Positions 11,267 to 64,000 of a stretch of 64,000 nucleotides of DNA are shown one piece after another. The DNA is from Candidatus Omnitrophota bacterium (lineage in GTDB: Bacteria > Omnitrophota > Gorgyraeia > Gygaellales > JBFMHM01): assembly GCA_040753015.1 (NCBI GenBank), contig JBFMHM010000007.1, positions 2,076 to 66,075 of the forward strand, read 5' to 3'. The first letter of the stretch is position 1. Every line of letters starts with the position of its first letter. The translations under genes were made by a program, and so were the position numbers. Below the pieces are notes generated by a model. That model saw only the letters and a list, made by a program, of their open reading frames with translations, ran no database searches and was not told the DNA's origin.

Positions 11267-12517
11267 TCATTCCTTTAATAAATATTTCCACGCAGGAATA
11301 ACTTCTATCATTTGGCCTGCTTCCTTCAGCATCCTCTCATTATCCTTAGAAATAACAGATATTTTTTTGTTTTTCGGAAATCTTTTTAAAAAAAGCCTTA
11401 AGCCATCAAATTTTTTGTCTTTCAGGTTAATTTCGGATTGATATTTAACTTCTACCGCACCTAGAACATGAAAATTACTAAATACAAAATCAATCTCCTT
11501 TTCACTTTCTGCAAAATAACCTATTCTGGGCTGTTTTTTAAAAAGACATAGAAATACCGCATTTTCCACTTTTACACCTAAATCACCTTTTCCTGTTAAA
11601 ACGGTTTTTATTCCACTATCAAAAAGGTAATTCTTTTTTTGTGAATATACCCGTTCATTATAAGATGTTGCCCATTTTTCAAGCGGCTTAATTAAAAAAG
11701 ATGCTTCCAAATACCCAATATATTCCTTAACTGTATCAACTGCGATTCCTAATATATTGCCAAGTTTATTAAAACTTGTCCGCGAACCAACAGAGCTAGC
11801 TATAAGCATCAAAAGATCTTTTAAAACAGATATACGTTTTATACTATGTAACCTAACAATATCTCGCACTAGAATATCATCTATCAAATTATTCAAATAA
11901 TCATCTGAAGGATGAAGCGCATTTTCAGGATATCCTCCCCGCATAAGATACTCCTCAAATAGAGCTTCAAATTTATAATCCTCAGACTTTGAAGGTAATT
12001 CTTTTTTAAAAGAAAGATATTCTTTAAAATTTAACGGATATATCACTGTAACGATTTGCCGGCCCGCAAGCCTTCCCTCTTGCCTTTTAATTAAAGAAGA
12101 TGTAGAACCGCTGCAAATTATTTTAACATTTTCTAAATCATACATCGATTTTAGCTCTATCTCCCAACCAGGAGTTTCCTGTATTTCATCCAAAAAAAGA
12201 TAAAGTTTTTTTGAACGCGAATGCATAAAAATTTTTCTAAATAATTTAAGGTGTTCCGTAATGGTAGTTTTAGATAAACGTGGATTATCAAGGCTTAAAT
12301 AAATAATATCTTTTGCCGGAATATTTTTGTGTAAGCACCATTTTATTAGCTGTTTTATAATTGTAGTTTTACCAACCCGCCTTGACCCAATAATTATATC
12401 TATTTGCTTACGGCTAAAAATTTTTTCTATTTTACCTAAATAATCTGTTCTTTGTATGCCACATTCAAATTTTTTATTCTCCCACCAAGGGTTAAAAGCA
12501 TAATACAAATCCTCCAT
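11267..12517 (-). CDS. AAA-family ATPase with DUF4143-like C-terminus (416 aa)
   Basis: Walker A 'IIIGSRRVGKTTIIKQL' and Walker B 'LFLDEIQ'. The architecture matches the widespread AAA_14/DUF4143 'ATP-binding protein' family. Confidence 0.8.
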   Translation of the reverse strand: MEDLYYAFNPWWENKKFECGIQRTDYLGKIEKIFSRKQIDIIIGSRRVGKTTIIKQLIKWCLHKNIPAKDIIYLSLDNPRLSKTTITEHLKLFRKIFMHSRSKKLYLFLDEIQETPGWEIELKSMYDLENVKIICSGSTSSLIKRQEGRLAGRQIVTVIYPLNFKEYLSFKKELPSKSEDYKFEALFEEYLMRGGYPENALHPSDDYLNNLIDDILVRDIVRLHSIKRISVLKDLLMLIASSVGSRTSFNKLGNILGIAVDTVKEYIGYLEASFLIKPLEKWATSYNERVYSQKKNYLFDSGIKTVLTGKGDLGVKVENAVFLCLFKKQPRIGYFAESEKEIDFVFSNFHVLGAVEVKYQSEINLKDKKFDGLRLFLKRFPKNKKISVISKDNERMLKEAGQMIEVIPAWKYLLKE

Positions 12518-12612: not shown

Positions 12613-15600
12613 TCAACTAATTAAAGGTTGGATCTGAATTAGGCTTAAGTCAATACCCCCTGGGTCTGGTTGGATTTCCGTAGGAACACCCTGTGCCTGT
12701 TCAATAGACACTCTATCGCCAGCCACTGTTGCAACATATGCCTCTGCGCGCTCAACTAACGTAGGTTCAGCTTGACCAGTGCGTTCGGTAATTTCTGTTG
12801 GCGATGCACCAACTTGCCTAAGTAGCTGCTCTATTGGATTGCCTGATCTACCACCTTGAACCAATGTTAATCTTGACGGTGGATTTTTAGAATCCGAACT
12901 ACCTGGTTCGTTTCCTGATTCTAGATTAGGATCTAGTGCTTCGGACGCTAACACGCCTAACCTAATTAATTGTGGAATACATTCTGCATCGCCATGATAT
13001 CCTTGCCATTGGCCTTCGTAAAGCGAAAGATGCATCTGTCTATTAATATCTAGAGCAACAATAAAACTTATATTTTTATACTTACCCCAAAGAAATTCAG
13101 CTCTAGAATTATCTTCGTCGCTTGGCTTAACATTATGACCTTCTTCGGGATGATAATGTCCCTGGACATCCTCTATCTGCGATAAAACTCCATTGTAATG
13201 ATGATAATCACCTAGGATTTCATTAACTGAATCAAAATTTCCTGATACACATAATAATATAGTTTCTTTACCTCTTCTTATAACTCTAAAACCCTTTTCT
13301 ATAGCCATTGCGGTAGACAAGATATCTCTAAATTGCGCAACTGTTAAGCTCTTAAGAACAACTATTCTATGTTCAATTCCACTAGGCATTACCAATGATT
13401 TTCGATCTAAGGATTGTTCTATCTTACCCAATAAATCTATCAGCATATCAACTCCTTTAACTCTTTTTCTAGCCTCCTCTATTATTAATTCGCCTATTAT
13501 ATTTGAAAAAATTTCCTTATCTTCATCGATAAATATGCCGTTTTTCCCATAAACATCATTTTGAAATCTTTCAATTATTCTCGCTATCAAAATTTTTAAA
13601 TCTCTCTCATATCTTTTAGTTTTAGTACTAGGATTATCGAGATTTAATCGAATAGCCAATAATAACTCATTTCTGAATATCTCAATAACGCGCTGCATTG
13701 CTTGTTCCCTCTCTCTTTTTGGTATATCACTAGAATGGGTATTATCCAGCAGAGGCCACATTAATTCATCGCTATATTCAATATCACTACAGTCAACACT
13801 TACATCAGTGCCATCATCGAATTTAATCTCTATCATTTTACTACCAAATAAATCTATCCAATTAATTACTCCCTCTTTTCCATTAAATAAAACGCGATCT
13901 CTCTTATGATATAAAATACCCTTAATCGTTAAAGAATCTGCCAGCCCTACACCTGCCGCGGGATTTATTTCCGTATCTGCCACTTCCACACTTGGTGCTT
14001 CTTCACTTGTAGCACAGCTATATTTTGTAAGTAATGGCTCAACATTGTAAGATCGATTTGCTTGTGCATGCAGGCGATTATTTTGTGCATGAGTGATGTG
14101 ATTGCGACGATCAGCGCCGGTGTAATACTGTAATTCAGCATCCCATCCTTGTGCTTCTGTTATTTCATGGCCAAGGACTGTTTGATATTCTGGATTGCTT
14201 TCTCCTAAATTAAATATCTCTTCGTCCATATACACTACAATTTGCCCATAGCTTGCGCCTAAACCAATGTGGCCAAGCTGGCCAGCTGATGAGCCGTCGG
14301 GATGTTTTAGTTCTTTTAAGCCTTTTACTGGGATAATATAAATACCGTTTACTTCTCGAACTAAGCCCTGTTTTTCTGCTGCTTTTAAAGCGGCTAACCG
14401 TCTCGCCCAAAGCCTTGCATCGCCTTCGCCAGGGTTTCTTTCAATATACACTGCCTCTGGAATATTCCTTATACCTTTATCATCTTTACCTCTAATATGC
14501 TCACTTAGCTTTGAGTTAGGCAGCAACGCACCAGAGCCAGCTGCGGGGTTAGTGTCGTCTTTACTGAATCGCACTAAGAGTCTCTTTACCAAATCTGAAA
14601 TCCTCGTTAATATTGATTGTCTATGTCCATACCACAGTTTTAAGTTTGTAATTGAATACTTTGAATCTGCTGGAAAGTTCTCTTGAATTTTTTGTGTAAT
14701 ATTAGCTTTTTTACTAGTGAGTTTTACCATTGCTACATTGATATTAACACGATTAGAGCCTGTGCTATCGCTTACAGCTACTAACACTTGTTCATAGCCG
14801 TTTTTTTGTGCTATTTCTTGGGTTAATTTATTAAGTAACTGTTCTACGAAAGCCTCTGCATTAAGCCTATTTGCAAGAGGAGTCCTTGGCTCAATACCAA
14901 CTATAACTAAAGACTTTTTGCCATTTATAATTAGAGTAAGCGTATATATTGAACCAACAATTCTGCCGTTTTCAATTATTCTGATTGGAGTAAAATTAGG
15001 ATTAAGTAGTTCTTGCGGATAATCTTTTGTACAGTCTTCTCCAAGGTAACCAAAGAAGTAATCTAGTGATGTTTTTGCCGGAATAAATTCAAGATCTATA
15101 ACTTCTGTTCCTTGTTCGGTTGTTATTCTTTGTTTAACAATGCCGGCTACGCGGGTTAGGCCGCTTACCTCGTCAATTACTTGCCTTGTTTCAATATTTG
15201 CTTCTGGTTTTATTTCAGTGAGAATTTCTTTTAAGGTGTATAAGTTTTGCGCGGTTAAAGGATTATCTAGGCTAATTGCATCTAGGGTTTGTTTTAAATG
15301 TGGATTAACAATTAAAACTAATGTTAGCATAAGATCTAAAGAACCTTGAACTTGTTTAATAGTTGGAGTGCCTGAAGCATGTTGTGTATTTAAGGTGATA
15401 ATTTCTTTTATTATCGCGGGATAATCTATTGTTGCGGCATTGGCAGTTAGATATGTTTGGATTTCTTGTTCTATTAGAGAATAATTTCTTTCTTTAGGGG
15501 CTTTTGCTAGTTCTTCTTGTATAGCTGATTGAGTTTGTAAACTAACAACTAAGGCTCGTAAGTTTTCAGGTAATTCATCTAATCTTTGTAATTTAATAAA

Positions 15601-18600
15601 TCTCTCAGTAATTAATTTTGCTAACACCTCTGGTGGAGCTCTTTGAGATAACTGCTTAAGATGGGTAAGCTTTTCTCGGACAAAGGCCTCTTCTTCAGTA
15701 GTTATTCCTTGAAGAACCAATATTCCTGAATATGCCTGCATTGTAAAAGAAGTTGTAAAGTTTGGTTGTGGTATTACTTCATTTTTATATCGTTCTCTTG
15801 TAGAACGATAGGTTTCAAGAGGAAGATTAGTTGAGCCGACAATAGACAGATGCGTTTCTTCTATCAGCTCGTCATCAATAAGGCCTTGTTCTGGTTCGGT
15901 ACCTTCAATAAATGAATCATAATAGAGCTTATAGTTAACTATAAGCCTAGCCCGTTCTTGGCCTTGTAATTGCTTAAACCTAGCGTATAGCTTAGATAGA
16001 TATAAGGATATTTCAAATTGGCTAAAATACCTGCTTATTAAATTTAATTCTTTCTGGATATTCTCTGGAGTAAGTGTTCTTAAGAATGCGTTGTTATTCT
16101 CTAAATTTGCCCCTGATTGCCTGAAGAATCTAATTAATAAATTATAGGTGTTTTCTTCTTTTAACTGCTCTAAGGTAAAGCCATTATTAAGAAGAATTAA
16201 TAATGCCCTTGCTACTGGTGCTTCTTTAAGATTAGTTTCTCTGCAAACTTTGGTTAAAAATTTATCCATCTCATTACTTACTTCATTAACTAATGTTTTA
16301 TCTGCCGTGGTAAGCGTCTCTGCCACAGCTTGAGCAATAGAAGCGAAAGTTTTGGCTTGCAAGTAAGGATCATTAGGGAGTTTTTCTGCTGCGGCAATAG
16401 CTTTAGCAAAAACAACAGCTGCTTCTTGTTCTGGCCTACCTGCTTGTGCCACAGCTTGAGCAATAGAAGCGAAAGTTTGGGCTTGCAAGTAAGGATCATT
16501 AGGGAGTTTTTCTGCTGCTAAGGCAAGGGCTTGTTCAAACCTACCTGCTTGTGCCATAGCTTGAGCAATAGAAGCAAAAATTTGGGCTTGCAAGGAAGGA
16601 TTATTAGTGAGTTTTTCTGCTGCTAAGGCAAGGGCTTGTTCAAACCTACCTGCTTGTGCCACAGCTTGAGCAATAGAAGCGAAAGTTTTGGCTTGCAAGT
16701 AAGGATCATTAGTGAGTTTTTCTGCTGCTAAGGCAAGGGCTAAACGCAAAATTAAATTCTGTTTATGAGCTAATTTTTTAACGATTACTTGTTCATCATC
16801 TGCAACTGTAGCTACTCCTGCCGCGGGATTTGTTTCATTATCTACCACTTCCACACTTGGTGCTTCTTCACTTGTAGCACAGCCGTATTTTGCAAGTAAT
16901 GGCTCGACATTGTGAGTTTGATTTGCATTAGTGTGCAGGCGAGTATTTTGTGCGTGAGTGATGTGATTACGACGATCTGCTCCTATGTAAAATTGTAATT
17001 CAGTATCCCAACCTTGTGCTTCTGTTATTTCATGGCCAAGGACTGTTTGATATTCTGGATTGCTTTCTCCTAAATTAAATATCTCTTCGTCCACATACAC
17101 TACAATTTGCCCATAGCTTGCACCTAAACCTATGTGCCCAAGCTGGCCTGCTTTTGTACCGTCAGGATGTTTAAGATCTTTTAAACCTTTTACGGGAATG
17201 ATGTAAATACCGTTTACTTCTCGAACTAAGCCTTGTTTTTCAGCTGCTTTTAAAGCGGCTAACCGTCTCGCCCAAAGCCTTGCATCGCCTTCGCCAGGGT
17301 TTCTTTCAACATAGACTGCCTCTGGAATATTTCCGCGTTTAGCAATATGTTTACTTAACTCTGAATTAGGCAGCAACGCACCAGAGCCTGCGGCGGGGTT
17401 GATGGAAGATTTAAATGCTGTAACTTCATGATCAAGTCGTACAAGAAAGCTATCTTTCTCTAATAAATCTGTAAGAAAAATGCCTTTTGGGCTGTTTAAA
17501 ATCTCTCCTAAAAGATTAGAATCATGTATTAAAAGCCATCTTACAAAAGCAGCCGAGACAAAAATTTTTCCCTGATCCACAAAACTTATAGCAACCCCCG
17601 TTTCTGCGTCTTCAAAAATAAAATCTACATCTTTTAATAATACAACCTCTGAAGCTCTGTCTCCTAATGATTGAATAACATCCCTAAAGCCAGCGATCAT
17701 ATTATCATTAAAACCAAAATCACACCTTAATCTATTTTGGGAATCTCTAGGTTCTAAGGGCCTGAAAGTCGTTCTTTCAGGAAGAGGGTCTAGATAATCT
17801 ATAAAAGGCTCATATAAAACGATATTTCCTTCTCTAACAACAGCTCCACATGCTCTATTACGCCTTAAAGAATCGGCGATTTTTCGTTGAGCATGATTGC
17901 TGAGTGCCCTTACCTGGCGAGACCAAAGAAATTCACAAATAAATGAACCGAGCAGATCGGATAAGCGATGTCGTAAAATAGAATCGTCCAACTTAGCCCT
18001 CTCTAAATCTACCAACCTCTCTAAATCTGCCGGGCTTCTCCTTAAGATCCAAATCAAAAATTCTTCACTAATCCAAAATCTATTATCCCTAAAATGACTC
18101 ACGATAGCACTGCGTTTTTCTGAATCGTAATAAATAAATGGTCTAGATCGCAAAATAGCTAAAGATATCCCTCGGCTACGTAAATATGTTAAGAATAACT
18201 CAACTCGTCTTTTATCTAAATCGCCAAATTGAATCCCTTCTCCTTCTGGAATAATCCTTCTCACCCTAAAGCCTACTCGGCTAACCCTTGGGATAGATGT
18301 TTGAACAAGCTGATTATCGCTTCCTAAGCTCAATTCAAGAGCTTTTTCTACACCGTTTTCAACAGCACTAGCTAAAATAGAAGATATTTCTGCTTCGTAT
18401 TGCACAGTATCTTCATGAGCTACTTCGTCTTGCGGCCCTTGAACATTTTCTCTTTCTAAACCTAAGCCTTCTTCAACACTGTCTTCCTCTGCTAAGACAA
18501 TCGAAGCTAAGTCGGCTAGTTCGCTATCAGATAAATTTAATGAAAAATTCACTTTTAACTGGCGTAGTAAAATTATTAGTATTTCGTTAGGCAAAGAACC

Positions 18601-20016
18601 AGTCTTATCCCCCTGTAAACATGAAAGTTGATCTCTGTAAATTTCTAGACTCCTCTTATCAAGAGGCACTCGGCCTGGACTACTTTTATTAGACATAAGT
18701 ATAAGAATTACCTTTCCTATCATTTGTTTTTTGATTGTTCTAAGAGCAGCAAAAAACTTTAAATTATTCAATTTAACCTCGGGATACGAAAGTAATCGGG
18801 TAATCGCTACTCCTGCTGCCTCTTTAATAATACCAGCTTGTTTTCCATGTATTTTACCTAGAAATAACAAAGAGTCTCTAATGTTTGAGCTACCTCTAAA
18901 CATAATGCGAATCATAAGAACTACACCGGCTAACTTATTAAGTTCATCTAGTATTTCTTGGAAGTTCAATTTAGTATATATATGCCACATCTGGTCATAA
19001 GACATATTCAAACTTCCCGCTTGAAGGCGAACATAAACCTCTGGTAATGCTTTCTCTATTTGAAATGTTGTAATTGATTTTGCACCCGGAGAAGCTAAAT
19101 CTGAATCTTCAAAATAAGTACTCAGCATCATTTCTATTAAAAACTTTTTAGCAATACTTCTTTCAGTAGGACTAAGTTCCGACATAAAACTAATATCTAA
19201 TCTATCTGCTACACTCTGAATAACCTGACTTTTACTTAATAAACAACGTTGAAGATATCTTGAAAGTTTTTCTCGTGCTTCTGATGACCTATCTTCTAGC
19301 ATATGCAGTGGAACACGAATAATTCCATCTTCCGAAATAGCAAATTCGGTTAATTCAATATCAACTAGCAGAATTACTAAGCCTGAGCATTCATTTTCTA
19401 ACCAAGGATATAATTTAATGGCTTTCTTCAATACATCCTCAAAATAATCTAATTTTTCTTTCACAATAAGAATAGTGGCTGTGGAATCACGCGTGCCCTC
19501 TCGCTTTAATTTATTTGCGCTCATTCGATATTGAGCAAAATTTACATTAGATTGTTGTTGTCTTAATAATTCAGCTCTTACTCTTAAAGCTGTAAGGGCA
19601 TTTTCTTGCCCTGCACCAGCACGCATAGCTTGATATCCAAAATAGAACAAACGGATATACTCCCATGGATTAATGTAAGAATTATCTTGCTGGCCAACCG
19701 AAGCCGTTTGGACTTGTATTTCTTTGGTAATTTCACTAATACCAAAGATAAAAGTTAAGTAATCTTTTTCTTTTTGACTGCGCTCTTTATCAGGCGCATA
19801 ATTTGCTAAATTTCTTTGCTCATCAGACAACGGAACCCCCCAACCTAATTCTTTATTTGCCCAAAGAGCCGTATCCATCTGTTCTCTGCTTGACTTAAGC
19901 GAAACAGCCTGACAATTTGATTCAATCATTTGGATAAAACTAATTTCTGGATTAATAATAAAAACTGTTCCATTATCTAAAACCACCTCAAATGCAACTG
20001 TTTCCTTGCCGCGCAA
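12613..20016 (-). CDS. Giant protein (2467 aa), function unknown. It has an internal ~200-aa duplicated module, four 35-aa TPR-like tandem repeats, and two copies of a 'GHEITEAQ' module. No N-terminal signal peptide.
   Basis: Single uninterrupted ORF in the track. The repeats are visible at both protein and nucleotide level. One region is shared with the neighbouring 1319-aa protein ('AAFVRWLLIHDSNLLGEIL' vs 'EAFLKYLLNHDSKLLEDIF'). Confidence 0.85.
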   Translation of the reverse strand: MRGKETVAFEVVLDNGTVFIINPEISFIQMIESNCQAVSLKSSREQMDTALWANKELGWGVPLSDEQRNLANYAPDKERSQKEKDYLTFIFGISEITKEIQVQTASVGQQDNSYINPWEYIRLFYFGYQAMRAGAGQENALTALRVRAELLRQQQSNVNFAQYRMSANKLKREGTRDSTATILIVKEKLDYFEDVLKKAIKLYPWLENECSGLVILLVDIELTEFAISEDGIIRVPLHMLEDRSSEAREKLSRYLQRCLLSKSQVIQSVADRLDISFMSELSPTERSIAKKFLIEMMLSTYFEDSDLASPGAKSITTFQIEKALPEVYVRLQAGSLNMSYDQMWHIYTKLNFQEILDELNKLAGVVLMIRIMFRGSSNIRDSLLFLGKIHGKQAGIIKEAAGVAITRLLSYPEVKLNNLKFFAALRTIKKQMIGKVILILMSNKSSPGRVPLDKRSLEIYRDQLSCLQGDKTGSLPNEILIILLRQLKVNFSLNLSDSELADLASIVLAEEDSVEEGLGLERENVQGPQDEVAHEDTVQYEAEISSILASAVENGVEKALELSLGSDNQLVQTSIPRVSRVGFRVRRIIPEGEGIQFGDLDKRRVELFLTYLRSRGISLAILRSRPFIYYDSEKRSAIVSHFRDNRFWISEEFLIWILRRSPADLERLVDLERAKLDDSILRHRLSDLLGSFICEFLWSRQVRALSNHAQRKIADSLRRNRACGAVVREGNIVLYEPFIDYLDPLPERTTFRPLEPRDSQNRLRCDFGFNDNMIAGFRDVIQSLGDRASEVVLLKDVDFIFEDAETGVAISFVDQGKIFVSAAFVRWLLIHDSNLLGEILNSPKGIFLTDLLEKDSFLVRLDHEVTAFKSSINPAAGSGALLPNSELSKHIAKRGNIPEAVYVERNPGEGDARLWARRLAALKAAEKQGLVREVNGIYIIPVKGLKDLKHPDGTKAGQLGHIGLGASYGQIVVYVDEEIFNLGESNPEYQTVLGHEITEAQGWDTELQFYIGADRRNHITHAQNTRLHTNANQTHNVEPLLAKYGCATSEEAPSVEVVDNETNPAAGVATVADDEQVIVKKLAHKQNLILRLALALAAEKLTNDPYLQAKTFASIAQAVAQAGRFEQALALAAEKLTNNPSLQAQIFASIAQAMAQAGRFEQALALAAEKLPNDPYLQAQTFASIAQAVAQAGRPEQEAAVVFAKAIAAAEKLPNDPYLQAKTFASIAQAVAETLTTADKTLVNEVSNEMDKFLTKVCRETNLKEAPVARALLILLNNGFTLEQLKEENTYNLLIRFFRQSGANLENNNAFLRTLTPENIQKELNLISRYFSQFEISLYLSKLYARFKQLQGQERARLIVNYKLYYDSFIEGTEPEQGLIDDELIEETHLSIVGSTNLPLETYRSTRERYKNEVIPQPNFTTSFTMQAYSGILVLQGITTEEEAFVREKLTHLKQLSQRAPPEVLAKLITERFIKLQRLDELPENLRALVVSLQTQSAIQEELAKAPKERNYSLIEQEIQTYLTANAATIDYPAIIKEIITLNTQHASGTPTIKQVQGSLDLMLTLVLIVNPHLKQTLDAISLDNPLTAQNLYTLKEILTEIKPEANIETRQVIDEVSGLTRVAGIVKQRITTEQGTEVIDLEFIPAKTSLDYFFGYLGEDCTKDYPQELLNPNFTPIRIIENGRIVGSIYTLTLIINGKKSLVIVGIEPRTPLANRLNAEAFVEQLLNKLTQEIAQKNGYEQVLVAVSDSTGSNRVNINVAMVKLTSKKANITQKIQENFPADSKYSITNLKLWYGHRQSILTRISDLVKRLLVRFSKDDTNPAAGSGALLPNSKLSEHIRGKDDKGIRNIPEAVYIERNPGEGDARLWARRLAALKAAEKQGLVREVNGIYIIPVKGLKELKHPDGSSAGQLGHIGLGASYGQIVVYMDEEIFNLGESNPEYQTVLGHEITEAQGWDAELQYYTGADRRNHITHAQNNRLHAQANRSYNVEPLLTKYSCATSEEAPSVEVADTEINPAAGVGLADSLTIKGILYHKRDRVLFNGKEGVINWIDLFGSKMIEIKFDDGTDVSVDCSDIEYSDELMWPLLDNTHSSDIPKREREQAMQRVIEIFRNELLLAIRLNLDNPSTKTKRYERDLKILIARIIERFQNDVYGKNGIFIDEDKEIFSNIIGELIIEEARKRVKGVDMLIDLLGKIEQSLDRKSLVMPSGIEHRIVVLKSLTVAQFRDILSTAMAIEKGFRVIRRGKETILLCVSGNFDSVNEILGDYHHYNGVLSQIEDVQGHYHPEEGHNVKPSDEDNSRAEFLWGKYKNISFIVALDINRQMHLSLYEGQWQGYHGDAECIPQLIRLGVLASEALDPNLESGNEPGSSDSKNPPSRLTLVQGGRSGNPIEQLLRQVGASPTEITERTGQAEPTLVERAEAYVATVAGDRVSIEQAQGVPTEIQPDPGGIDLSLIQIQPLIS
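13940..14555 (-). repeat. Intragenic segmental duplication, copy 2 (~610 nt, ~90% identical to 16800-17405)
   Basis: Both copies encode 'NPAAGSGALLPNS..LWARRLAALKAAEKQGLVREVNGIYIIPVKGLK.LKHPDG..AGQLGHIGLGASYGQIVVY.DEEIFNLGESNPEYQTVLGHEITEAQGWD.ELQ.Y.GADRRNHITHAQN'. Confidence 0.85.
16310..16745 (-). repeat. Four tandem ~105-nt repeats encoding 35-aa TPR/HEAT-like units
   Basis: Unit 'gcttgtgccacagcttgagcaatagaagcgaaagttttggcttgcaagtaaggatcattag.gagtttttctgctgc...' at about 16315, 16443, 16551 and 16650. Encoded unit: 'EQALALAAEKL(T/P)NDPYLQAQ(T/I)FASIAQA(V/M)AQAGRF'. The antisense ORFs 16290..16499 and 16330..16521 are artefacts of the repeats. Confidence 0.85.
16800..17405 (-). repeat. Intragenic segmental duplication, copy 1
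   Basis: Long near-identical nucleotide runs, for example 'ccacttccacacttggtgcttcttcacttgtagcacagc' in both copies. Confidence 0.85.
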
Positions 20017-20177: not shown

Positions 20178-23100
20178 TTAATTCGGGTGATCGATCTTGG
20201 GGGTTATTTTTTTTGCCTCTAATTCATCGCAGAGTGTTTTGCCTGGCATACTTGTTGAAGAAATTGTAGCAAGATCTTGTAATACTAAAAGGCGTTCTTT
20301 GACTTCATGATAAAGAACTTCTTTTAATTTTGGTGGGGCTCTAAGATGGTTAACATTAAGATAAATCTGCCTGCGGCCTAAAGCATAGTGATCATCTCCA
20401 TTATAAAAAATAATGTCTGTATCTTTAAGTGCCTGCCCTAACCCTAGCTCATCGATTGTATCTTGTAGAAGTTTTAACTGCTCTTGTGATAATTGTATAT
20501 CTTGTTCTCTTATACTAATTACCTCACCTTGCTTGCGTGTTTTTCCGTCTGATTCAATAGTTGCATCTAATTTAAAATCAACTTGGCAAGTTTTGCCACT
20601 TTGCGCATCATACCTTGCCGCTGCAATTTCATTTTCTACGATTGCCTTTTGTATACCAGGTGTATAATCCACGTTCCTGCCATGCCTAAATCCTCGGTGA
20701 TCAGACATTGAGCTACCAGGATTCATAGCTAAAAGCTGTTGAGCAGTTGTGACAACATCTATATTATCACTTCTTATTTTCACCAACTTTGCACTTCTTG
20801 GGTCATCGGTAAAAACAATTCGCCCATCATAAAAATACAACTCACCAGTTAATGGACACACTAAAATCCCTACACCAGTTGGGAAGTGACTATTGGATAG
20901 TCCAACATCCAAACCAGAATATTTTCCTACCCAATAATTACTTAGTGTCTTAGGATGAATATGCCACCACCCAATGGTAATTAATTGAGGTAAAGAATGA
21001 CCGCGCTGATCATTTAACTTATTTCGAAAAGAAGTTGCAGTCGATAAATAATCCATACTAAAAACAAGGCTTCCCGGGCCACGCGTTAATCCTTCATCGA
21101 CTGAATAAATATTTGTAATTACTAAAATATCACCATCACGATAGCCAAACAACAAGCCACCATATTCATTAACATCATTATTATGCGGGTCATTTAGAAG
21201 TTCCTGGCGAAGCCTATTATCAAATCGAACAGTCCGAATACCATCTAACCCTGACAAAGGATTAGTAAGTTCAAAATCTAATAATTCTCCATCATCACTT
21301 GAAGGTGGAAGCAAAAAATCCCCGCGGGGAGATTGATGGGCTGGCTGTGTAGGGTGAACTGCTGATAATTCTGCAGTAGGTGCAGGCATTGCTGGCGGAG
21401 GCAAAGGTTGAGATGCTGGGGGTTGTGCAACTGGCTTGGTCATAATTGCATCAGTTAATTTAGCTACAAGGCTTGTATGATCACTAAAAATATCCGCGGG
21501 TGTAATTTTTCCGCTTATTGATGCATCCTTTAAGATATCCTTTACAAAACCTCTAACCATTAAATATGTAAAAATCCTTTGGTCAAGCGGATAAAACCCC
21601 GGCCAAACAAAATTAAAAAATAAATGTCTCTCAGAAGTATACCGACGACCACCAACATGTCTAGTGCCTCCCTCATAAGCCGATTTTGTTTCTACACAAA
21701 CATCGTTTAGAATAAGCTGCGGTACAATTTTTGGCTGAGCCGCCAATACAGATTGTAATCGCGATAATAAATCCTTTAGCTCTACGTCAATTGTTTCTGC
21801 ATTTAAGCCGCGTACCCTCGCGATAACTTCTTCTGCAAAAGAAAGCGCTTCTTTGTAATCTAACTGGTGTAAGTACCGCATATCGGTAGTAACACCTAAA
21901 ATATCTGTAACAAGCTCTCTAGAAACATCAACGCCTGCGCCAACGAAAAACGCAGTCATTATCGAGCCTTGTTTTACAAGTACTTCGTTTGCAATTTTTG
22001 TTCCTAATCTCCAAATTAAATTAGAAGAATCATCGGAATCTATTTCAATTACAGAACCTAATTCTTCTGGCCCTACAACAATAGAAACTCTTCTTATCCC
22101 ATTTAACATTATTTTAAGACTTGCTATTTTATCTTCTATTCTTCTAGCCCAATCACTCCAATCACTAGTATCAGTACTCATGACTAACCCAGGTCGTAGT
22201 TGAGCAACCGCTGTCCTAAGCCGTTGGCTTTCAGCCTGTTTTCTTTTAGCGCGTTCTTCAGGTGTTATAGATAATTTTTCTATAATATCATCTAACATAC
22301 GCTTTACTGGCCTATTCTGACTAGCATCAAATGATCCTGGAAGTATTACAGTAATTCCCGTCATTTTTCTAATTGCTGCTTCAACCCTCTGTAAAAGTTC
22401 ATTGTAGTCGGAATCCGTATCATGAGAATAATCTGGTTCATTCAAATGACGAAGGTCGTGGCGGAAGATGTCTTCTAGAAGTTTTGAATCATGATTTAAA
22501 AGATATTTTAGGAATGCTTCTGTAAGCCAAATTCTTCTGCGTTCTTGGCTAAAGATACCGCCAGCTACTGTTGCACCTGCATGGGTATAGGCAAAAGATG
22601 CACTATCTTGAGGTTGATAAAGCACAGGGCCCCTGCGATCAAGGCCAATACGAAAACCATTAATTTCTCCCTGAGGCAGGCTAGCCCATATTCTAACAAG
22701 TTCTCTTTGCTCTCCCTCTGTAAGATTTACTGCTTCTTGCCTAGTTAATTCACGAAGATTATCAACTGCATTATTTGGCATATTCCTTTGCACAATTCGT
22801 CCATCCTCAAAGCTCAACTCTACTACCGCGCTTGGGCCAACTGCAATTGCTGCTCTAAGATGCGGATTCACCTCTCTATTATTATCCGCATTGCCGATGT
22901 TAACAATATCACTTCTCGGCAATCGCCCCACCTCACTAACTGTTGCAGTCCGCTGGACAGAAAGCTCTCCAGTTTGCGCAAAAAGCATACCACCACTTGT
23001 GTAAGTTCTTTTAATTTTACGATTTAATTCTTTTTGATCTTGGGTATCTATAAGTTTATATTCGCCTTTTGTTGAGTTTAGGTAAGATTTATAAATTTGC

Positions 23101-24137
23101 TCTGGTTTAAATTTAAGATTATTGGTTTTTTGATAAGAATTTATTAATTGTTTTAACTTTTCGTTTTTCTCTTTACTCTTTACGCTTTTTTTGTACCACT
23201 GGGCGAGAATGAGTGCTTGATAAATTTGTCTAAGTGGTTCATAGGCTTTGTCTTGGTTTACTCGTTGAGTTAGTTCTGGGAGTATCAGTTGTTTTAGTTG
23301 AGATTCACAATATTCCTGTAGTTCTTCAGTTCGTTTGTCATTAGAAATTGGGATTTGGGATTTCTCAAGGTATTCGCTTTCTAGAAGCACCTTGAGCGTT
23401 GCTTTAACTATTGTAATTGAATCTTTAGTTTCGTAGACTTTAGCTTCATCAGGAACTATCCAGACGCGGAAGGTGGTAGGAATAGATACAGTTCGACTGT
23501 TCGTCAGTTCTTCGGTTCTTAGGTTTTGATTTTCATTTTGATTTTTGGTTTGTATATTTGATATTTGATATTTGATTTTTGATTTTTCTAAAGCTTTAGC
23601 CTTAGAAAACACTCTTTCCCAATAGGTTTTAGCATTTTTACCATAACCGGGTAATAATTCAAAGGCTGTGTCTTTCTTTAGTTTTAGGTCTAATACTAAA
23701 AGCGCTTTACCTAGGTCAGTGTCAGCAATTGAGTTACCGATGATTCTGCTTGGATCGTTTGGATTTAGGTTAACCCAAAGGTCTTTGTAGTCTATAGATA
23801 GGCTAGTAAAGAAATAATCTAGAAGCTCTTTACTTTTAAGCTTCTTCTGTTGTTCTGATATGTTGCGAGGAAGAAAGTTGAAATTAAAATTAAACCCAGA
23901 ATTTAGAGAAAGCGAAACGAATGTTGCATTTGGTTCGGGGACTTTAAGGCTAACAGCTTGGCCAAAGCTAATACTCTGGCAAAGAAATGTAAATGCCAAA
24001 AATAGACAAAAAATCCTTCTTGTAAGACTTATTTTATTCATTATAAATTTTTTGAAAAAGTGGACAAAAAATAACCCCTCACATATGCTTGGGGGTCGCC
24101 AGACTTCGTCGAACTCTGACGAGATATGTTTATTCAT
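20178..24137 (-). CDS. Giant secreted protein, function unknown, with a JAB/MPN (JAMM-like) domain near the C-terminus and a C-terminal 'YHEV' module. Annotated as 1319 aa from the track's first Met; the probable true start at the internal Met (24041) gives about 1287 aa with a signal peptide.
   Basis: An internal Met at about 24041 begins a classic signal peptide, 'MNKISLTRRIFCLFLAFTFLCQSISFGQA'. An MPN core 'EYGGLLFGYRDGDILV...GWWHIHP...YSGLD' lies at about 20880-21180. There is a low-complexity NQNENQN stretch at about 23530-23600. Confidence 0.85.
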   Translation of the reverse strand: MNKHISSEFDEVWRPPSICEGLFFVHFFKKFIMNKISLTRRIFCLFLAFTFLCQSISFGQAVSLKVPEPNATFVSLSLNSGFNFNFNFLPRNISEQQKKLKSKELLDYFFTSLSIDYKDLWVNLNPNDPSRIIGNSIADTDLGKALLVLDLKLKKDTAFELLPGYGKNAKTYWERVFSKAKALEKSKIKYQISNIQTKNQNENQNLRTEELTNSRTVSIPTTFRVWIVPDEAKVYETKDSITIVKATLKVLLESEYLEKSQIPISNDKRTEELQEYCESQLKQLILPELTQRVNQDKAYEPLRQIYQALILAQWYKKSVKSKEKNEKLKQLINSYQKTNNLKFKPEQIYKSYLNSTKGEYKLIDTQDQKELNRKIKRTYTSGGMLFAQTGELSVQRTATVSEVGRLPRSDIVNIGNADNNREVNPHLRAAIAVGPSAVVELSFEDGRIVQRNMPNNAVDNLRELTRQEAVNLTEGEQRELVRIWASLPQGEINGFRIGLDRRGPVLYQPQDSASFAYTHAGATVAGGIFSQERRRIWLTEAFLKYLLNHDSKLLEDIFRHDLRHLNEPDYSHDTDSDYNELLQRVEAAIRKMTGITVILPGSFDASQNRPVKRMLDDIIEKLSITPEERAKRKQAESQRLRTAVAQLRPGLVMSTDTSDWSDWARRIEDKIASLKIMLNGIRRVSIVVGPEELGSVIEIDSDDSSNLIWRLGTKIANEVLVKQGSIMTAFFVGAGVDVSRELVTDILGVTTDMRYLHQLDYKEALSFAEEVIARVRGLNAETIDVELKDLLSRLQSVLAAQPKIVPQLILNDVCVETKSAYEGGTRHVGGRRYTSERHLFFNFVWPGFYPLDQRIFTYLMVRGFVKDILKDASISGKITPADIFSDHTSLVAKLTDAIMTKPVAQPPASQPLPPPAMPAPTAELSAVHPTQPAHQSPRGDFLLPPSSDDGELLDFELTNPLSGLDGIRTVRFDNRLRQELLNDPHNNDVNEYGGLLFGYRDGDILVITNIYSVDEGLTRGPGSLVFSMDYLSTATSFRNKLNDQRGHSLPQLITIGWWHIHPKTLSNYWVGKYSGLDVGLSNSHFPTGVGILVCPLTGELYFYDGRIVFTDDPRSAKLVKIRSDNIDVVTTAQQLLAMNPGSSMSDHRGFRHGRNVDYTPGIQKAIVENEIAAARYDAQSGKTCQVDFKLDATIESDGKTRKQGEVISIREQDIQLSQEQLKLLQDTIDELGLGQALKDTDIIFYNGDDHYALGRRQIYLNVNHLRAPPKLKEVLYHEVKERLLVLQDLATISSTSMPGKTLCDELEAKKITPKIDHPN

Positions 24138-24294: not shown

Positions 24295-25524
24295 TTAAAA
24301 TTGATAATTCGGCTTATATACAAACTGACGGCCGTGTTTAGATTTAACAAGAATTCCCTTTACGACCAAATCCTCAAGATCATGACGTGCAGTTTCATAA
24401 ACAACCTTAAACCAACCTTCATAGGCCTTAATAATTATCATCCTTTTATCACTTACGAGAAATTTTTTAAGAAATTTATCCTGGCGCTCATTAAGCAGAA
24501 TCCCTTTTTCTCTTAGCTTAACAAAAACAAACTCACGTTGATAATGTTGAGCGATTCGCTCACTAACAAGCCGCATAGACTCTAAAATTGTATCCGATAG
24601 ATACAGTAAGAAATAAGTCAAATCAGCATTGCAATCTTCTACATCTTTAATGGCCCTGTAATACTGTATTTTTGTCTTCTGAACAACCGCTGATATAGAA
24701 AAATATTTAAAAAATTCATATCCGTGTTTAATCATAAAATAATAGAACAACGCCCGTGCAGTCCGGCCATTACCATCGAAAAATGGATGAATATAAACAA
24801 AATAAAAATGGATAAAAGACGCTCTAATTATAGGATGAATAAAACGCTCATCATCTTTACTATTAACCCACTCAACTAGTTTTCTCATTGCTGGTTCAAT
24901 CTGCTCTGCCTTAGGCGGCGTATAAATTATAATATCGCGCCGCTTGTCTTTAATATAAACCATATCATCACGGAAGCGCCCAGCATAAGCTTCATCTTCA
25001 AAAAGAGTTTCTTTAGTCACAATTTTATGCAATTGCAAAATAAAATCTAAAGATAATTCTCTATGCTTCTCTTGCAAGATAAATTGCATAGCCTTATAAT
25101 TATTTAAAACCATTTGATCATTAATATCTATAGGCGATTTTTTTTCTTCTACTAATTCACGTAAACGCTTCATAGTTGAGAAAGCCCCTTCAATAACACT
25201 TGAATAAAGCGCTTCTTCTATTAACGAATCTTTCACGAGTTCATTTTCAATTTCTTTCTTAACAACCCGATATAAAGAATCTTTACCACTCGAATCTATT
25301 TCGTAAATTCTTTTCTGTAATATTGGCGTTAAAAAATACCAAAAATTTTGATTATTTTGATCTATAAACGGCAAGCCCTCTGATTTCTGTTTTCTAAACT
25401 TAATTGCCTCTTGCCAAAACTCCTCTAAAGATAATTCGTTCGGAAGCCTATAACCAATTTCTTCTTTAGATAGATAACCTTGAACAGAAAATTTATTTAT
25501 AAATTCATTTATATTAGTATTCAT
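24295..25524 (-). CDS. fic: Fic-family protein (AMPylase-type), 409 aa
   Basis: Canonical Fic motif 'HPFFDGNGRTARALF'. It sits immediately upstream, on the same strand, of the giant secreted protein. Confidence 0.85.
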   Translation of the reverse strand: MNTNINEFINKFSVQGYLSKEEIGYRLPNELSLEEFWQEAIKFRKQKSEGLPFIDQNNQNFWYFLTPILQKRIYEIDSSGKDSLYRVVKKEIENELVKDSLIEEALYSSVIEGAFSTMKRLRELVEEKKSPIDINDQMVLNNYKAMQFILQEKHRELSLDFILQLHKIVTKETLFEDEAYAGRFRDDMVYIKDKRRDIIIYTPPKAEQIEPAMRKLVEWVNSKDDERFIHPIIRASFIHFYFVYIHPFFDGNGRTARALFYYFMIKHGYEFFKYFSISAVVQKTKIQYYRAIKDVEDCNADLTYFLLYLSDTILESMRLVSERIAQHYQREFVFVKLREKGILLNERQDKFLKKFLVSDKRMIIIKAYEGWFKVVYETARHDLEDLVVKGILVKSKHGRQFVYKPNYQF

Positions 25525-45347: not shown

Positions 45348-46670
45348 TTAATTTATCACCCAATACCCGCCCTTATCTGGGCCAATACGTTTAATAATTC
45401 CCTCTTTCTTCATCTTCGCAATATGCCATTCTATTCCCTTAAGTGTAAGACAAGAACTTTTTGCAAGAACAGATATTGTTATTGCCGAATTTTCTTTAAT
45501 TAGGCGCAATATTTTCTCCCTAGTTTTCTCCCTAGTTTTCTCCCTAGTTTTATCTAAACCTTCTACAGTCTTTGCTTTTAAAAAACATACGCACAAGCCA
45601 CCTGTTATTTCTGAGAATTCAGGTTCAGGAAGTTTTGCTTGTCGGCATTTTTCTACAATCTTTATTGTACCCCTACCCCATGATTCGATAAATCCAGCTT
45701 TAAAAAATACATCGGCTAAAAGCTCATTACGCGGGCAAGATAAGTGAGGCTTTTTTAACTTATCACAAGTAATTTCGCGAGGAAGTTTACCAATATTCCA
45801 TAACCATAATTTATTATCATAGACTCGTATTTGCGTATGAGGACCTGTATAATCACGGTGTATAACTGCATTAATTATTGCCTCGCGTAAAGCATCTTCA
45901 GGATAGATAAGATCTTCTTTTCGATATATGCCTTCATAATAAAATCTATTTTCTAAATATTTTACTTTTAGAATCTCTAGCGTCTTTTCAACTTGTTCAA
46001 AAATATTTCCTTCGATGATATCAGTACTAATAACTTCGCTTTCCGATGCAAATCGTCCAATTTGAATAAATGCTGAAGTAAAGTATTTTTTAGGATTTTT
46101 ACCAAAAAGAAGAATAGCTGCGCGTTTTAATTTTCCTTTTTCCATAAGATTTAGTTTTTCTAAAATAAGTTTAACGTTTTTTTCACGATATATAAACGGA
46201 AATCTTGTTTTAGCTAATTGCTGAAAATACCTGATAGCTTTAATACTAATATCTTTGGATGAAGCCCTTGGCTCAATTATATTATCCCAAGATGTACCAG
46301 CACAAGAAAGAATAAAATGAGATAATTCTATTCCTTTCAATTCAGAAGTTGTGCTGCCAGAACGAATATAAAAGTTACCTTTATAAGAAATTGCGGCTTT
46401 GTATTTTTTAACAATTATTTTTATAATCGGACCATGTGTTTTTTTAATATCTTTTATATCGACAACAATGCCTAAAATATCTCTTATTTTATTTGGAATA
46501 TACTCTAAAAGTTTGTTTACATCTCTTAAGCCAACAACTCTACCTTCGTCATTAATACCTATATACAATATGCCACCACTTGTATTTGCAAATGCGCATA
46601 TTGTTTTAAGCGCTTCATCACTCCACTGTTCTTTAAATTCTATATTTTGATTTTCGTTTTTATAAATCAT
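45348..46670 (-). CDS. AlbA_2 (Schlafen-like) DNA-binding / HATPase-like / C-terminal HTH regulator ('RecG C-terminal-like ATP-dependent DNA helicase' family)
   Basis: N-terminal 'NIEFKEQWSDEALKTICAFANTSGGILYIGI' AlbA_2 signature. Contains an in-frame (KTRE)x3 repeat. Confidence 0.7.
   Translation of the reverse strand: MIYKNENQNIEFKEQWSDEALKTICAFANTSGGILYIGINDEGRVVGLRDVNKLLEYIPNKIRDILGIVVDIKDIKKTHGPIIKIIVKKYKAAISYKGNFYIRSGSTTSELKGIELSHFILSCAGTSWDNIIEPRASSKDISIKAIRYFQQLAKTRFPFIYREKNVKLILEKLNLMEKGKLKRAAILLFGKNPKKYFTSAFIQIGRFASESEVISTDIIEGNIFEQVEKTLEILKVKYLENRFYYEGIYRKEDLIYPEDALREAIINAVIHRDYTGPHTQIRVYDNKLWLWNIGKLPREITCDKLKKPHLSCPRNELLADVFFKAGFIESWGRGTIKIVEKCRQAKLPEPEFSEITGGLCVCFLKAKTVEGLDKTREKTREKTREKILRLIKENSAITISVLAKSSCLTLKGIEWHIAKMKKEGIIKRIGPDKGGYWVIN
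45512..45547 (-). repeat. Perfect 12-bp x3 tandem repeat (ttttctccctag), in frame, encoding TREKTREKTREK
   Basis: Seen directly in the sequence; a partial fourth unit follows. Confidence 0.9.
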
Positions 46671-61087: not shown

Positions 61088-64000
61088 TTAGAAGGAAAGT
61101 GTCGTAAGGTCTATACCGCCGTTTTCGGCAACTTCTCTGGCTACTTCAGAATTTACGGCTATTAATTGTCCATGATAAACAACGGTGGATATCTTCTTAC
61201 CTAAACCTGTTTGATCTAAAGCAAGGTTTAAGTTTGCCTGCGTTGCTTCATTTGAAACAATTACGCTTCGTAAGCCAACATTTTCATCTAGCTCGCCATT
61301 TAAAGCTGCAACTATCTCTTGCTCATTAGCGCCATCAAATAATGGTATCTCTTTGCCTTGAAATATAAATTCTCTTACAACCCTAAATTCTCTACCAGCC
61401 ATTTCAAACCCAGGTAATGTCGAAACGGCTAATCTTTCTAGCGGAATAACTAATTCGATAGTTGTGCCCCTTGTTAATCTATTGCCTAACAAAATATCTA
61501 TATTACTATTTCTTTCTCCAACTTTTTCTAATTTATTCGACGGAGAACCATCAATACAACTACTGTCTATAATAATCGCACCGTTATAATCACGTAAAAC
61601 CTTCGTCTGTATAAAGAATAAAAAACCAAGTCCGCGCCTTCCCATAAGGCCATCATCAAGACGCCCTCTTTTACCATGGCCTAACCAGCCTAATCTATGC
61701 ATCTCTGCAATATTATCTAGATTTTCTGCAAGTAGAAACAAATCGTCTAACTCTATACCACATCCATCATCACTAACTTCAATAATAAGATCTTTGCCTC
61801 TTATGTACAATTTAACTTTAATTATACTGGATGTTTTCTTTTTTAGCTTAAGATTTACTTCTCTGCTAGCATCGTATGCATTTGCAATAAGCTCTCTAAC
61901 AATTTTCTCAATATCATTTCTCTGATTATTACTAAACATTGTTAACTTTTCTTTTAAAACATTTATTTTAAAATATTTATCTATAAAATTTTCTCCAACA
62001 CTATCGCCGTCAAAAGTTACGATCTCACCTTCATCACCAAATATATAATCTTTATATACATCTCCACCTATATATAATCTTTGATCACTATCAAATCTTA
62101 CTTCAACAACATCTTCAAATATTAGTATTTCTTCTTTAGGAATTTCTTTTCTGGTGATTCGCATATTCCCCTCAGCATGTGCAATAATAGAGCCGGGAAT
62201 CCTCTCAAGCCGAGCTTGCTGTAATTTACGTCTATATTCAATAGCTAATCTAATAACTACCCCTAAAACTTCCCTATAATCACCAGCCATATGTAGACCA
62301 TCTAAATCAGTGCGTGAGCCTGCACCAATTTCATTTAATGCGGCGATAAGTTGATCGAAAGATTCACTATAATGTTCATCGGCGGTGAGGATTCCAACCA
62401 CTGCCTTTGCGCGGTCTTGCGCTGAAGTATTTGCTAATCCTGGGCTATTAAGCCTATCTATAATTTTTTGCTTTAACCCAGCTGTAAATTCTGGCGCAGA
62501 CATTTGATGCTCAAGAAACAAACTATTATCTTCTATCCTAAAATGTTCTTCGGCAAGGCTAGGCTCATCAGCAATACCATAGGTTTTAAACCATTCCTCT
62601 TCTTTATCTCGATAAAGTTTTTTTATTGCTGCTGAATCATCCGCTTCAAGCTCAGCACGTAAATTTGCAAGTGCCTCGTTTAATTCTATATGGTTTATTA
62701 TTAATGGTAATTTACCCCTCTTCTCTAAAATGCGCCTTCTTACTTCATGCTCGACCTCATGATAAATTACAAATTTTTTACGCGCCACTCCCTCAGTGGT
62801 ATTATCATAATATCCGTCATCAAAAACAATCACATCATCGTTATAATGATAAGAAATTCCTGCGAGTTTTTTTATACCATTTGGGGCCGCTTCTCGATTA
62901 ACTATATCTACAGAATAAACTTCTACTGTGCCTTGGCTAGTACCTACATCTAATACAGAATTAATTTTACAGATTATTATCTTTGACGTTTCTTTATCTG
63001 GCAGAACTATATAATTATGTTTTTTTAGGATAGAATTAAGAGCATCCAGCGTGCGAGGGAATCTTCCAACGAAAACAATATTATCAGCACTAAATTCTTT
63101 TTCAAAATTATCTAACAGCCGCTTTAATTCATTAAGTTTTTTATCATGGGTAATTGAAAGAGTAAAAACTCTATCGATTTCCCTGCACAGTAAACGCACT
63201 GTCCTTCTAAGGATTAATTCTGAAATATAGATTGTAAAATTAAGCAAATATTGTTCTAATAGAAGAATGGGCCCTGTCAATGAAGGCATAATACTTGCTT
63301 GGGCTAACTGGCTTAGGCGCTCACTTTCCATACCTATAGCATGATTTATTTCGTGTGAGTAGAGTTCTTTGCGGTCAGATAAACTTAGTTGGCTTAATGC
63401 CGAAAGATTTGCATGTAATGTGTTGCCTTGAACAAACATTATGTTATTAGCGTATTGTGTGTCTTCAACTGTAATATGCGTAATACCGTGCTGCGCTAAG
63501 TATGCCTCAATTTCGGCTTTAATTCCAGGCCCTTTTTGATCCCTAACTTGCCCTACATAAATAAACTTTTGATCCGGAGGATCAACATATATTAAAGCAT
63601 GTATTTCATCTATAAGGCTTTGGTCTGTAATTGGCCCGTCCACCAATAGATCAAAATGTTTTTTCATTAAGTGAGGAATAACCTTAAAATTTTTTCTTTC
63701 ATGCTCTTCTAATGCAACAGCAACTACCCTCATTCCAGAACAATGCTTCTCTAGCTCTAAAACAAGTTTACCGAAAGCCTCTGAAGAAATACCCTGGCTT
63801 TCTAAAAAATTGGTACTCTGCCTTTGACCTATAGACCCAAGATCTAACTGAACCAACCTCTGAGATGAAAATATTTTAAATTTTAAAATAAACTGAAACT
63901 CATTAAGCCTTACATTTCCAGTTACCACTGAAAGAAAGCGTTCTGTATTTTTTAGATGAGCTACTTTATCTACAATAACTGTATAGACATCGCGACCATT
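61088..64000 (-). CDS. Large GHKL-ATPase-containing protein (>970 aa; 5' end beyond the window)
   Basis: C-terminal HATPase_c: N-box 'IVRELIANAYDAS', G1 'VSDDGCGIE', G2 'GRRGLGF'. Two HExxH motifs ('YSHEINHAIG' and 'VIYHEVEHEV'). The frame stays open from 63928 to 64000 (NGRDVYTVIVDKVAHLKNTERFLSVVTGNV...), so the true start is upstream of the window. Confidence 0.75.
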   Translation of the reverse strand, partial: NGRDVYTVIVDKVAHLKNTERFLSVVTGNVRLNEFQFILKFKIFSSQRLVQLDLGSIGQRQSTNFLESQGISSEAFGKLVLELEKHCSGMRVVAVALEEHERKNFKVIPHLMKKHFDLLVDGPITDQSLIDEIHALIYVDPPDQKFIYVGQVRDQKGPGIKAEIEAYLAQHGITHITVEDTQYANNIMFVQGNTLHANLSALSQLSLSDRKELYSHEINHAIGMESERLSQLAQASIMPSLTGPILLLEQYLLNFTIYISELILRRTVRLLCREIDRVFTLSITHDKKLNELKRLLDNFEKEFSADNIVFVGRFPRTLDALNSILKKHNYIVLPDKETSKIIICKINSVLDVGTSQGTVEVYSVDIVNREAAPNGIKKLAGISYHYNDDVIVFDDGYYDNTTEGVARKKFVIYHEVEHEVRRRILEKRGKLPLIINHIELNEALANLRAELEADDSAAIKKLYRDKEEEWFKTYGIADEPSLAEEHFRIEDNSLFLEHQMSAPEFTAGLKQKIIDRLNSPGLANTSAQDRAKAVVGILTADEHYSESFDQLIAALNEIGAGSRTDLDGLHMAGDYREVLGVVIRLAIEYRRKLQQARLERIPGSIIAHAEGNMRITRKEIPKEEILIFEDVVEVRFDSDQRLYIGGDVYKDYIFGDEGEIVTFDGDSVGENFIDKYFKINVLKEKLTMFSNNQRNDIEKIVRELIANAYDASREVNLKLKKKTSSIIKVKLYIRGKDLIIEVSDDGCGIELDDLFLLAENLDNIAEMHRLGWLGHGKRGRLDDGLMGRRGLGFLFFIQTKVLRDYNGAIIIDSSCIDGSPSNKLEKVGERNSNIDILLGNRLTRGTTIELVIPLERLAVSTLPGFEMAGREFRVVREFIFQGKEIPLFDGANEQEIVAALNGELDENVGLRSVIVSNEATQANLNLALDQTGLGKKISTVVYHGQLIAVNSEVAREVAENGGIDLTTLSF

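Follow-up and report, generated by a model that had tools for sequence, protein, structure and literature searches.

Three large proteins encoded in a 64,000-nucleotide (nt) chromosomal segment of a Candidatus Omnitrophota metagenome-assembled genome (MAG; contig JBFMHM010000007.1, the whole segment being called the window below) carry short blocks with the motif HExxH or HExxE. Two of the proteins, JAB1319 and G2467, are encoded by adjacent giant genes, and the third is a protein with GHKL ATPase domains, of which the window holds one open reading frame (ORF). An earlier note on this DNA had read the blocks as five instances of one domain family, possibly a minimal zincin-like fold that is active in the GHKL protein but degenerate in both giants. 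Our analysis suggests that the five sites are signatures of separate, very divergent zincin-like modules scattered in large Omnitrophota proteins, a reading to which we assign a probability of about 0.45. At most, these modules would extend a known superfamily by new and very divergent members. Omnitrophota are uncultured, probably host-dependent nanobacteria that are known for very large multidomain proteins without known function.

Translation confirmed that all five blocks are present where they had been noted (Table 1). Since the two G2467 copies belong to one duplicated module, the independent instances number four and not five. The JAB1319 block, which had been placed at the very C-terminus, actually lies 38 amino acids (aa) before the stop codon. 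The proposed shared F/Y-x-D-G element is loose, and in JAB1319 it is RRQIYLNVNHL and not IIFYNGDD that aligns with the strands of the other instances. The HExxH motif of zincins (clan MA) is found in the GHKL ORF (HEVEH and HEINH), and not in G2467 (HEITE twice) or JAB1319 (HEVKE). Together, the three proteins contain five HExx[HE] motifs, where ~0.65 are expected, and the remaining 39 large ORFs, which total 14,174 aa, contain none. The HExxH sites, two observed versus 0.14 expected in the three proteins, are clearly non-random.

HExxH is also enriched in proteins from outside the window. A search with JAB1319 returned 88 relatives, which share only its N-terminal domain (aa 40-400). This domain is led by a signal peptide, matches no Pfam model, and occurs in proteins of 740-2280 aa, mostly from Omnitrophota and a few archaeal. 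The C-terminal parts of the relatives are wholly different and include HD, PEP-utilising, glucose-6-phosphate isomerase, TIM, NMP kinase, receiver, DnaJ, RHS and other domains. HExxH occurs 17 times in the 88 relatives, nine-fold above the 1.95 expected and a count reached in 0 of 300 shuffles, and the permuted control motifs HxxEH, EHxxH and HDxxH are at expectation. The modules around these sites have the layout of the window blocks: a strand of hydrophobic residues such as NKIYVNLGWI or GKVIYVNKQSV is followed by 6-20 further residues and then by hhhHExxH. In at least 7 of these 17 modules, a helix with E-x-x-A-[DNEH] follows 19-44 aa further downstream, a gluzincin-like arrangement. When a profile of the 17 modules was searched against the PDB, 12 of the 13 matches at E <= 10 were zincin peptidases, with alignments extending beyond the five-residue motif. 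The best match was the minigluzincin selecase (E = 0.003, covering strand, loop and helix), followed by Ste24, CapP and aminopeptidase N. The relatives' modules also show weak matches to SprT-like (4 of 24 modules, best 4e-4), M78, M48, DUF5700, Zn_peptidase and ATLF families.

A conserved subgroup with HExxE-x(11-13)-(E)AH was also observed among the relatives (P0002 aa 513, P0023 aa 557 and 1467, P0018 aa 468, P0067 aa 874 and ~390; for example HEQREIYYRKQGLNWIQAHN). A hidden Markov model (HMM) of this subgroup picks up one further copy (E = 3e-5). G2467 is not detected by this HMM.

The flanks of the window sites were compared with those of the relatives' modules. An HMM trained only on the 17 modules of the relatives was used to score each site against 500 decoys with an unchanged motif between shuffled flanks. 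Scores equal to or above that of the real site were reached by 15 of 500 decoys for GHKL aa 390, 37 for GHKL aa 192, 29 for JAB1319 and 30 for G2467, and the Fisher combination over the four independent sites gives p ~0.003. The procedure is calibrated: with HEIAH planted at 171 control His sites in housekeeping ORFs, 5.3% of the sites had p <= 0.06.

The HEVEH and HEINH sites of the GHKL protein are plausibly the catalytic candidates among the sites, judging from their sequences. In module 2, a NEALANLRAEL helix lies 24 aa past the second His, and its Glu at aa 418 is a candidate third ligand; this helix resembles the E-x-x-A-[DN] helices of the relatives' modules. Neither GHKL module matches Pfam or the PDB. 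What the earlier note called the GHKL protein is cut short by the window edge. The full-length membrane protein, P0090, is 1656 aa long and has transmembrane segments between its three GHKL ATPase domains; the ORF in the window represents only its C-terminal 946 aa. The N-terminal part of the ORF has no relative among 5.8 billion proteins in a word-indexed search. Apart from the protein itself, an exhaustive phmmer search of 1.84 billion representatives returned only six other large proteins (P0091-P0096), which have the domain at aa 4-130 in common with it.

The HEITE block of G2467 lies in a duplicated module of ~200 aa, whose copies are 74% identical overall and ~90% in the core. An NPAAG[SV]G linker is found at each edge of each copy, four times in total, and nowhere else among the 91 proteins examined; it may mark a processing or recombination boundary. 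Comparison of the copies gives a ratio of nonsynonymous to synonymous differences (pN/pS) of 0.11 for aa 896-965 and 0.56 for aa 1002-1062, and the duplicated module is a real domain under purifying selection. Within the 36 codons around the strand and the HEITE helix, only 1 of 108 nt differs between the copies; in the flanking sequence, divergence is 9.5-15% and includes many synonymous changes. Such near-identity could equally reflect local gene conversion or unusually strong constraint. The strand and helix align with Peptidase_M48 (PF01435) at 13.0-17.4 bits (E = 0.004-0.09; for copy 1, 15.5 bits, E = 0.015), at profile positions 48-74 only and below the gathering cutoff of 20.3 bits; the matches at E = 0.015-0.024 are in register. 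Downstream of HEITE, NHITHAQN might serve as a third-ligand stretch. The relative P0019 has HEITEA as in G2467. No relative of the module was found among 5.8 billion proteins in the word-indexed search, or in genome and metagenome contigs.

Three further observations concern G2467. HEAT/TPR-like repeats with the consensus LALAAEKL.N.P.LQA.TFASIAQAVAQAGRFEQA lie just downstream of copy 1, between the two copies. A JAMM motif in its C-terminus (GHYHPEEGHNVKPSDED, resembling HxH...SxxD) was considered and set aside, as it has no Pfam support; if real, both giants might carry JAB-type domains. A relationship of G2467 to Zincin_1/DUF1025 (PDB 3e11), interrupted by an insertion, was also dropped, as constructs with the insertion deleted matched neither the PDB nor Pfam.

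Of all the blocks, the C-terminal HEVKE of JAB1319 has the weakest case, and it probably lacks catalytic activity. The order of elements in its module is helix (IQLSQEQLKLLQDTIDEL), strand (DIIFYNG), strand (RRQIYLNVNHL) and helix (KLKEVLYHEVKERLLVLQDL), and after HEVKE only CDELEAKK might serve as a third-ligand stretch. The module has no match in Pfam, the PDB or PHROGs. Its sole homologue found is P0026 aa 1101-1208 (phmmer E = 1e-6), and no further one turned up when genome and metagenome contigs were scanned with the JAB1319 C-terminus.

A second module of JAB1319 (aa 494-565, with HDLRH), outside the five noted blocks and like them of the strand-then-helix style, has a paralogue at aa 798-868 of G2467 (BLAST E = 0.025; phmmer E = 0.018; hhalign probability 55%, P = 1.2e-4). 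G2467 aa 626-676 represents a third copy, a weaker one, which hhalign aligns with a probability of 12.5% to G2467 aa 798-868 and 7.9% to JAB1319. On these sequence comparisons, it is this module that is better supported as common to both giants than the noted blocks. JAB1319 aa 526-588 matches the NCBIfam SprT model PRK04351 at E = 0.021 and 14.4 bits, where the cutoff is 113. The G2467 repeat also aligned to G2467 aa 740-880 with an hhalign probability of 81%, which was rejected as an artefact of overlapping query segments.

Table 1. Positions of genes, modules and motifs in the window. Residue numbers for the GHKL protein are those of the ORF in the window.
Feature	Protein, residues	Position (nt)	Strand	Remark
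JAB1319 gene	JAB1319	20178-24137	minus	
G2467 gene	G2467	12613-20016	minus	directly downstream of JAB1319
GHKL ORF	GHKL	61088-63928	minus	extends past the window edge
Shared N-terminal domain	JAB1319, aa 40-400	22938-24020	minus	shared with the 88 relatives
HEVKE	JAB1319, aa 1277-1281	20295-20309	minus	translation
HEITE, copy 1	G2467, aa 995-999	17020-17034	minus	translation
HEITE, copy 2	G2467, aa 1950-1954	14155-14169	minus	translation
HEVEH	GHKL, aa 390-394	62747-62761	minus	translation
HEINH	GHKL, aa 192-196	63341-63355	minus	translation
JAB1319 C-terminal module	JAB1319, aa 1213-1293	20259-20501	minus	HEVKE; translation
G2467 module, copy 1	G2467, aa 873-1071	16804-17400	minus	HEITE; NPAAG linkers at edges
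G2467 module, copy 2	G2467, aa 1823-2026	13939-14550	minus	HEITE; NPAAG linkers at edges
NPAAG[SV]G linkers, copy 1	G2467	17386-17400, 16816-16830	minus	
NPAAG[SV]G linkers, copy 2	G2467	14536-14550, 13951-13965	minus	
36 codons around strand and HEITE helix	G2467	17014-17121 (copy 1), 14149-14256 (copy 2)	minus	
GHKL module 1	GHKL, aa 136-216	63281-63523	minus	HEINH; helix IKAEIEAYLAQHG, strands THITVED and NIMFVQGNTLHANL, helix KELYSHEINHAIG
GHKL module 2	GHKL, aa 357-427	62648-62860	minus	HEVEH; strand DVIVFDDGYY, then helix FVIYHEVEHEV
Second strand-then-helix module of JAB1319	JAB1319, aa 494-565	22443-22658	minus	HDLRH; RRRIWLTEAFLKYLLNHDSKLLEDIFRHDLRH; outside the five noted blocks
Paralogue of JAB1319 aa 494-565	G2467, aa 798-868	17413-17625	minus	GKIFVSAAFVRWLLIHDSNLLGEIL ... 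RLDHEVTAF; BLAST, phmmer, hhalign
Weaker third copy	G2467, aa 626-676	17989-18141	minus	NRFWISEEFLIWILRRSPADLERLV; hhalign
HEAT/TPR-like repeats	G2467, aa 1088-1239	16300-16755	minus	
JAMM motif, rejected	G2467, aa 2286-2302	13111-13161	minus	
PDC-S01-type AAA_14/DUF4143 ATPase		11267-12517	minus	PADLOC, E = 6e-87
SoFic-type Fic protein		24295-25524	minus	PADLOC, E = 2e-50
Schlafen/AlbA_2 + HATPase_c_4 + winged helix-turn-helix protein		45348-46670	minus	PADLOC matches to pAgo-associated and SIR2-PNTD models

Between named instances from different proteins, no pair reached E < 1 in BLAST or phmmer, and hhalign gave probabilities of 0.1-0.9% with profiles of one or two sequences each; the profiles are this shallow because each module is an orphan, and the one-family test therefore has low power. 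The best hhalign pair, the JAB1319 C-terminus with the G2467 module, is in the expected register (P = 0.065, probability 0.9%). An HMM built from the five instances found nothing significant in the PDB (top match a sigma factor, E = 0.085; best zincin 3e11, E = 0.3 over 25 residues), and selecase was not among the matches of the five-instance profile. Beyond a core of ~35 aa, the window regions are not alignable. By eye, GHKL aa 364-396 (DVIVFDDGYYDNTTEG..HEVEHEV) resembles the DUF4157 pattern I-x-F-x-x-G-x-Y ... HELxHV. Using hmmscan, no match to DUF4157 (PF13699) was found at E <= 10 for nine long or trimmed segments; the suggested DUF4157 relationship is not supported. The five named instances do not match SprT-like models (PF10263 / PRK04351). 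As far as profile-profile alignment could be run, and at its low power, the instances stay below significance. The window modules are probably separate orphans and not copies of one recent family, as judged from these alignments. The reading of the earlier note, in which one DUF4157-like minimal zincin family is catalytic in the GHKL protein, degenerate in the giants and ties the two loci together, is quite improbable in our view. It would account for the common strand, loop and helix layout with similar spacing and for the combined flank test, and the pair above is the only profile alignment in register. As HExxH modules occur 17 times in 88 relatives of unrelated architecture, the proposed link between the giant-protein island at 12-24 kb and the GHKL gene is not supported. 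Of the minimal zincin-like fold, a generic active-site signature (hydrophobic strand, short loop, HExxH helix) retains partial support and a catalytic GHKL protein is plausible only; the single family is not supported.

Several results weigh against our reading of separate zincin-like modules. No window module reached a family threshold in Pfam, NCBIfam, PHROGs or PADLOC, in scans that covered whole proteins, 130-210-aa segments and 50-73-aa cores, and the sub-threshold matches in these library scans were to M48 and SprT only. When single modules or profiles of two sequences were searched against PDB sequences, nothing relevant was returned. The HExxE sites on their own are only marginally non-random (three observed, two of them independent, versus 0.51 expected), and the single-site flank p-values are just 0.03-0.07. 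The JAB1319 homologue P0026 has HDALE in place of HEVKE, and its flanks give no signal, as 300 of 500 decoys are equal or better. When the window modules were added to the relatives' profile, the selecase score dropped from 20.9 to 15.6 bits (E = 0.16). AlphaFold2 models of the G2467 module have low confidence, with a predicted local distance difference test (pLDDT) score of 48.7 from a two-row alignment and 53.5 from a 30-row alignment (72-79 for the strand and the HEITE helix), the latter alignment having been built on the zincin hypothesis itself. Foldseek searches of these models against the PDB and BFVD found nothing at E < 0.1. In both runs, the low-confidence topology is an N-terminal helix, (four) strands, the long HEITE helix and a further helix. 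The AlphaFold check proposed earlier returned a zincin-like order of elements, but neither confident models nor a structural match.

Many of these points fit a narrower explanation, in which only the two GHKL HExxH sites are zincin-like and the HExxE sites of JAB1319 and G2467 are unrelated amphipathic helices picked by eye in ~3,800 aa of orphan sequence. The weak HExxE excess, the poor hhalign pair, P0026, the Foldseek result and the loss of selecase score all favour it. However, each HExxE site beats ~94% of its flank-shuffled decoys with a profile trained elsewhere (Fisher for the two ~0.02), 27 residues of G2467 align with M48 in proper register, and conservation within the G2467 duplicate is highest in the motif stretch. 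P0019 and the conserved HExxE..AH subgroup of the relatives also speak against chance helices, and we regard this explanation as rather doubtful. We consider it improbable that no site is a peptidase, the sites being structural or metal-independent helices and the HExxH enrichment arising from another function or from composition. This would be in line with the missing family thresholds and structure matches and with the orphan status of all window modules, but it does not explain why the permuted control motifs are not enriched, why zincin peptidases make up 12 of the 13 PDB matches of the relatives' profile, with alignments that go past the motif itself, or why many relatives have a downstream Glu helix.

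If the sites are zincin-like modules, they would form the active-site strand, loop and helix of small gluzincin/minigluzincin-style metallopeptidase modules in fast-evolving multidomain proteins. In the GHKL sites, zinc would be held by the two His and a downstream Glu, and the Glu of the motif would activate water. The G2467 module, in which the second His is replaced by Glu, may bind metal via an altered ligand set or may have lost catalysis. Active copies might process the giant polypeptide in cis or cleave a target protein, a role suggested by the motif and by analogy with the metallopeptidases (MPTases) of polyvalent proteins and polymorphic toxins. A bolder proposal holds that the NPAAG-flanked HEITE module and the relatives' HExxE-x(11-13)-(E)AH modules represent a new zincin variant, with Glu for the second His and a downstream His completing the metal site; the variant would be a processing cassette that excises itself and cuts giant Omnitrophota polyproteins at its own NPAAG borders. 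We consider this highly improbable. If the HExxH modules are working peptidases, the Omnitrophota giants may be polyproteins from which separate enzymes are released by cleavage, as has been suggested for the polyvalent proteins of phages and plasmids, and their domain content would have to be read differently. As a flag for candidate processing sites, the motif is useful; it neither ties the loci together nor yet defines a family.

JAB1319 is 100% identical to the NCBI entry 'MAG: hypothetical protein AB1755_05820 [Candidatus Omnitrophota bacterium]'. The neighbours of its gene, all on the minus strand, are housekeeping genes (SecA, RF2, UvrC, MurJ, LptE, LeuRS and ComEC). Both giant genes are bracketed by a PDC-S01-type ATPase and a SoFic-type Fic protein (Table 1), which are candidate anti-phage defence genes in PADLOC. 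A Schlafen-type protein with further PADLOC matches is encoded elsewhere in the window (Table 1). Between nt 19800 and 20600, the opposite strand is empty and regulatory signals are no more frequent than by chance.

The modules can be compared with three known groups. SprT-like, Spartan and Wss1 proteases resemble them through sub-threshold matches only (the relatives' modules and JAB1319 aa 526-588). The scores are far below the cutoffs, the third-ligand His is absent, and the JAB1319 match is to the HDLRH module, not to the HEVKE block. Minigluzincins such as selecase (MJ1213, PDB 4qhf) and Peptidase_M48 show a similar strand, loop and helix pattern (NKTIYINKNILPYLSDEEIRFILAHELLH versus RRQIYLNVNHLRAPPKLKEVLYHEVKE and GQIVVYVDEEIFNLGESNPEYQTVLGHEITE). 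Unlike these, the window modules are below significance, longer and equipped with extra flanking elements, and the second ligand is Glu in G2467 and JAB1319.

The zincin-like MPTases of polyvalent proteins and polymorphic toxins, of which 12 clades have been described, have a core of an N-terminal helix, a three-stranded sheet, the HExxH helix and a Glu helix (Iyer, Burroughs, Anand, de Souza and Aravind 2017; PMC5512222). In contrast to those systems, which reside on phages or conjugative elements, the modules here belong to chromosomal Omnitrophota genes. HExxE replaces HExxH in two of the three window proteins, and the likeness to the described clades is architectural only. Like those MPTases, the Omnitrophota modules are very divergent and lie outside the curated zincin families, and the low-confidence model of G2467 suggests a similar topology. 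In both cases, very large multidomain proteins contain small HExxH modules, singly or several times, set between unrelated domains.

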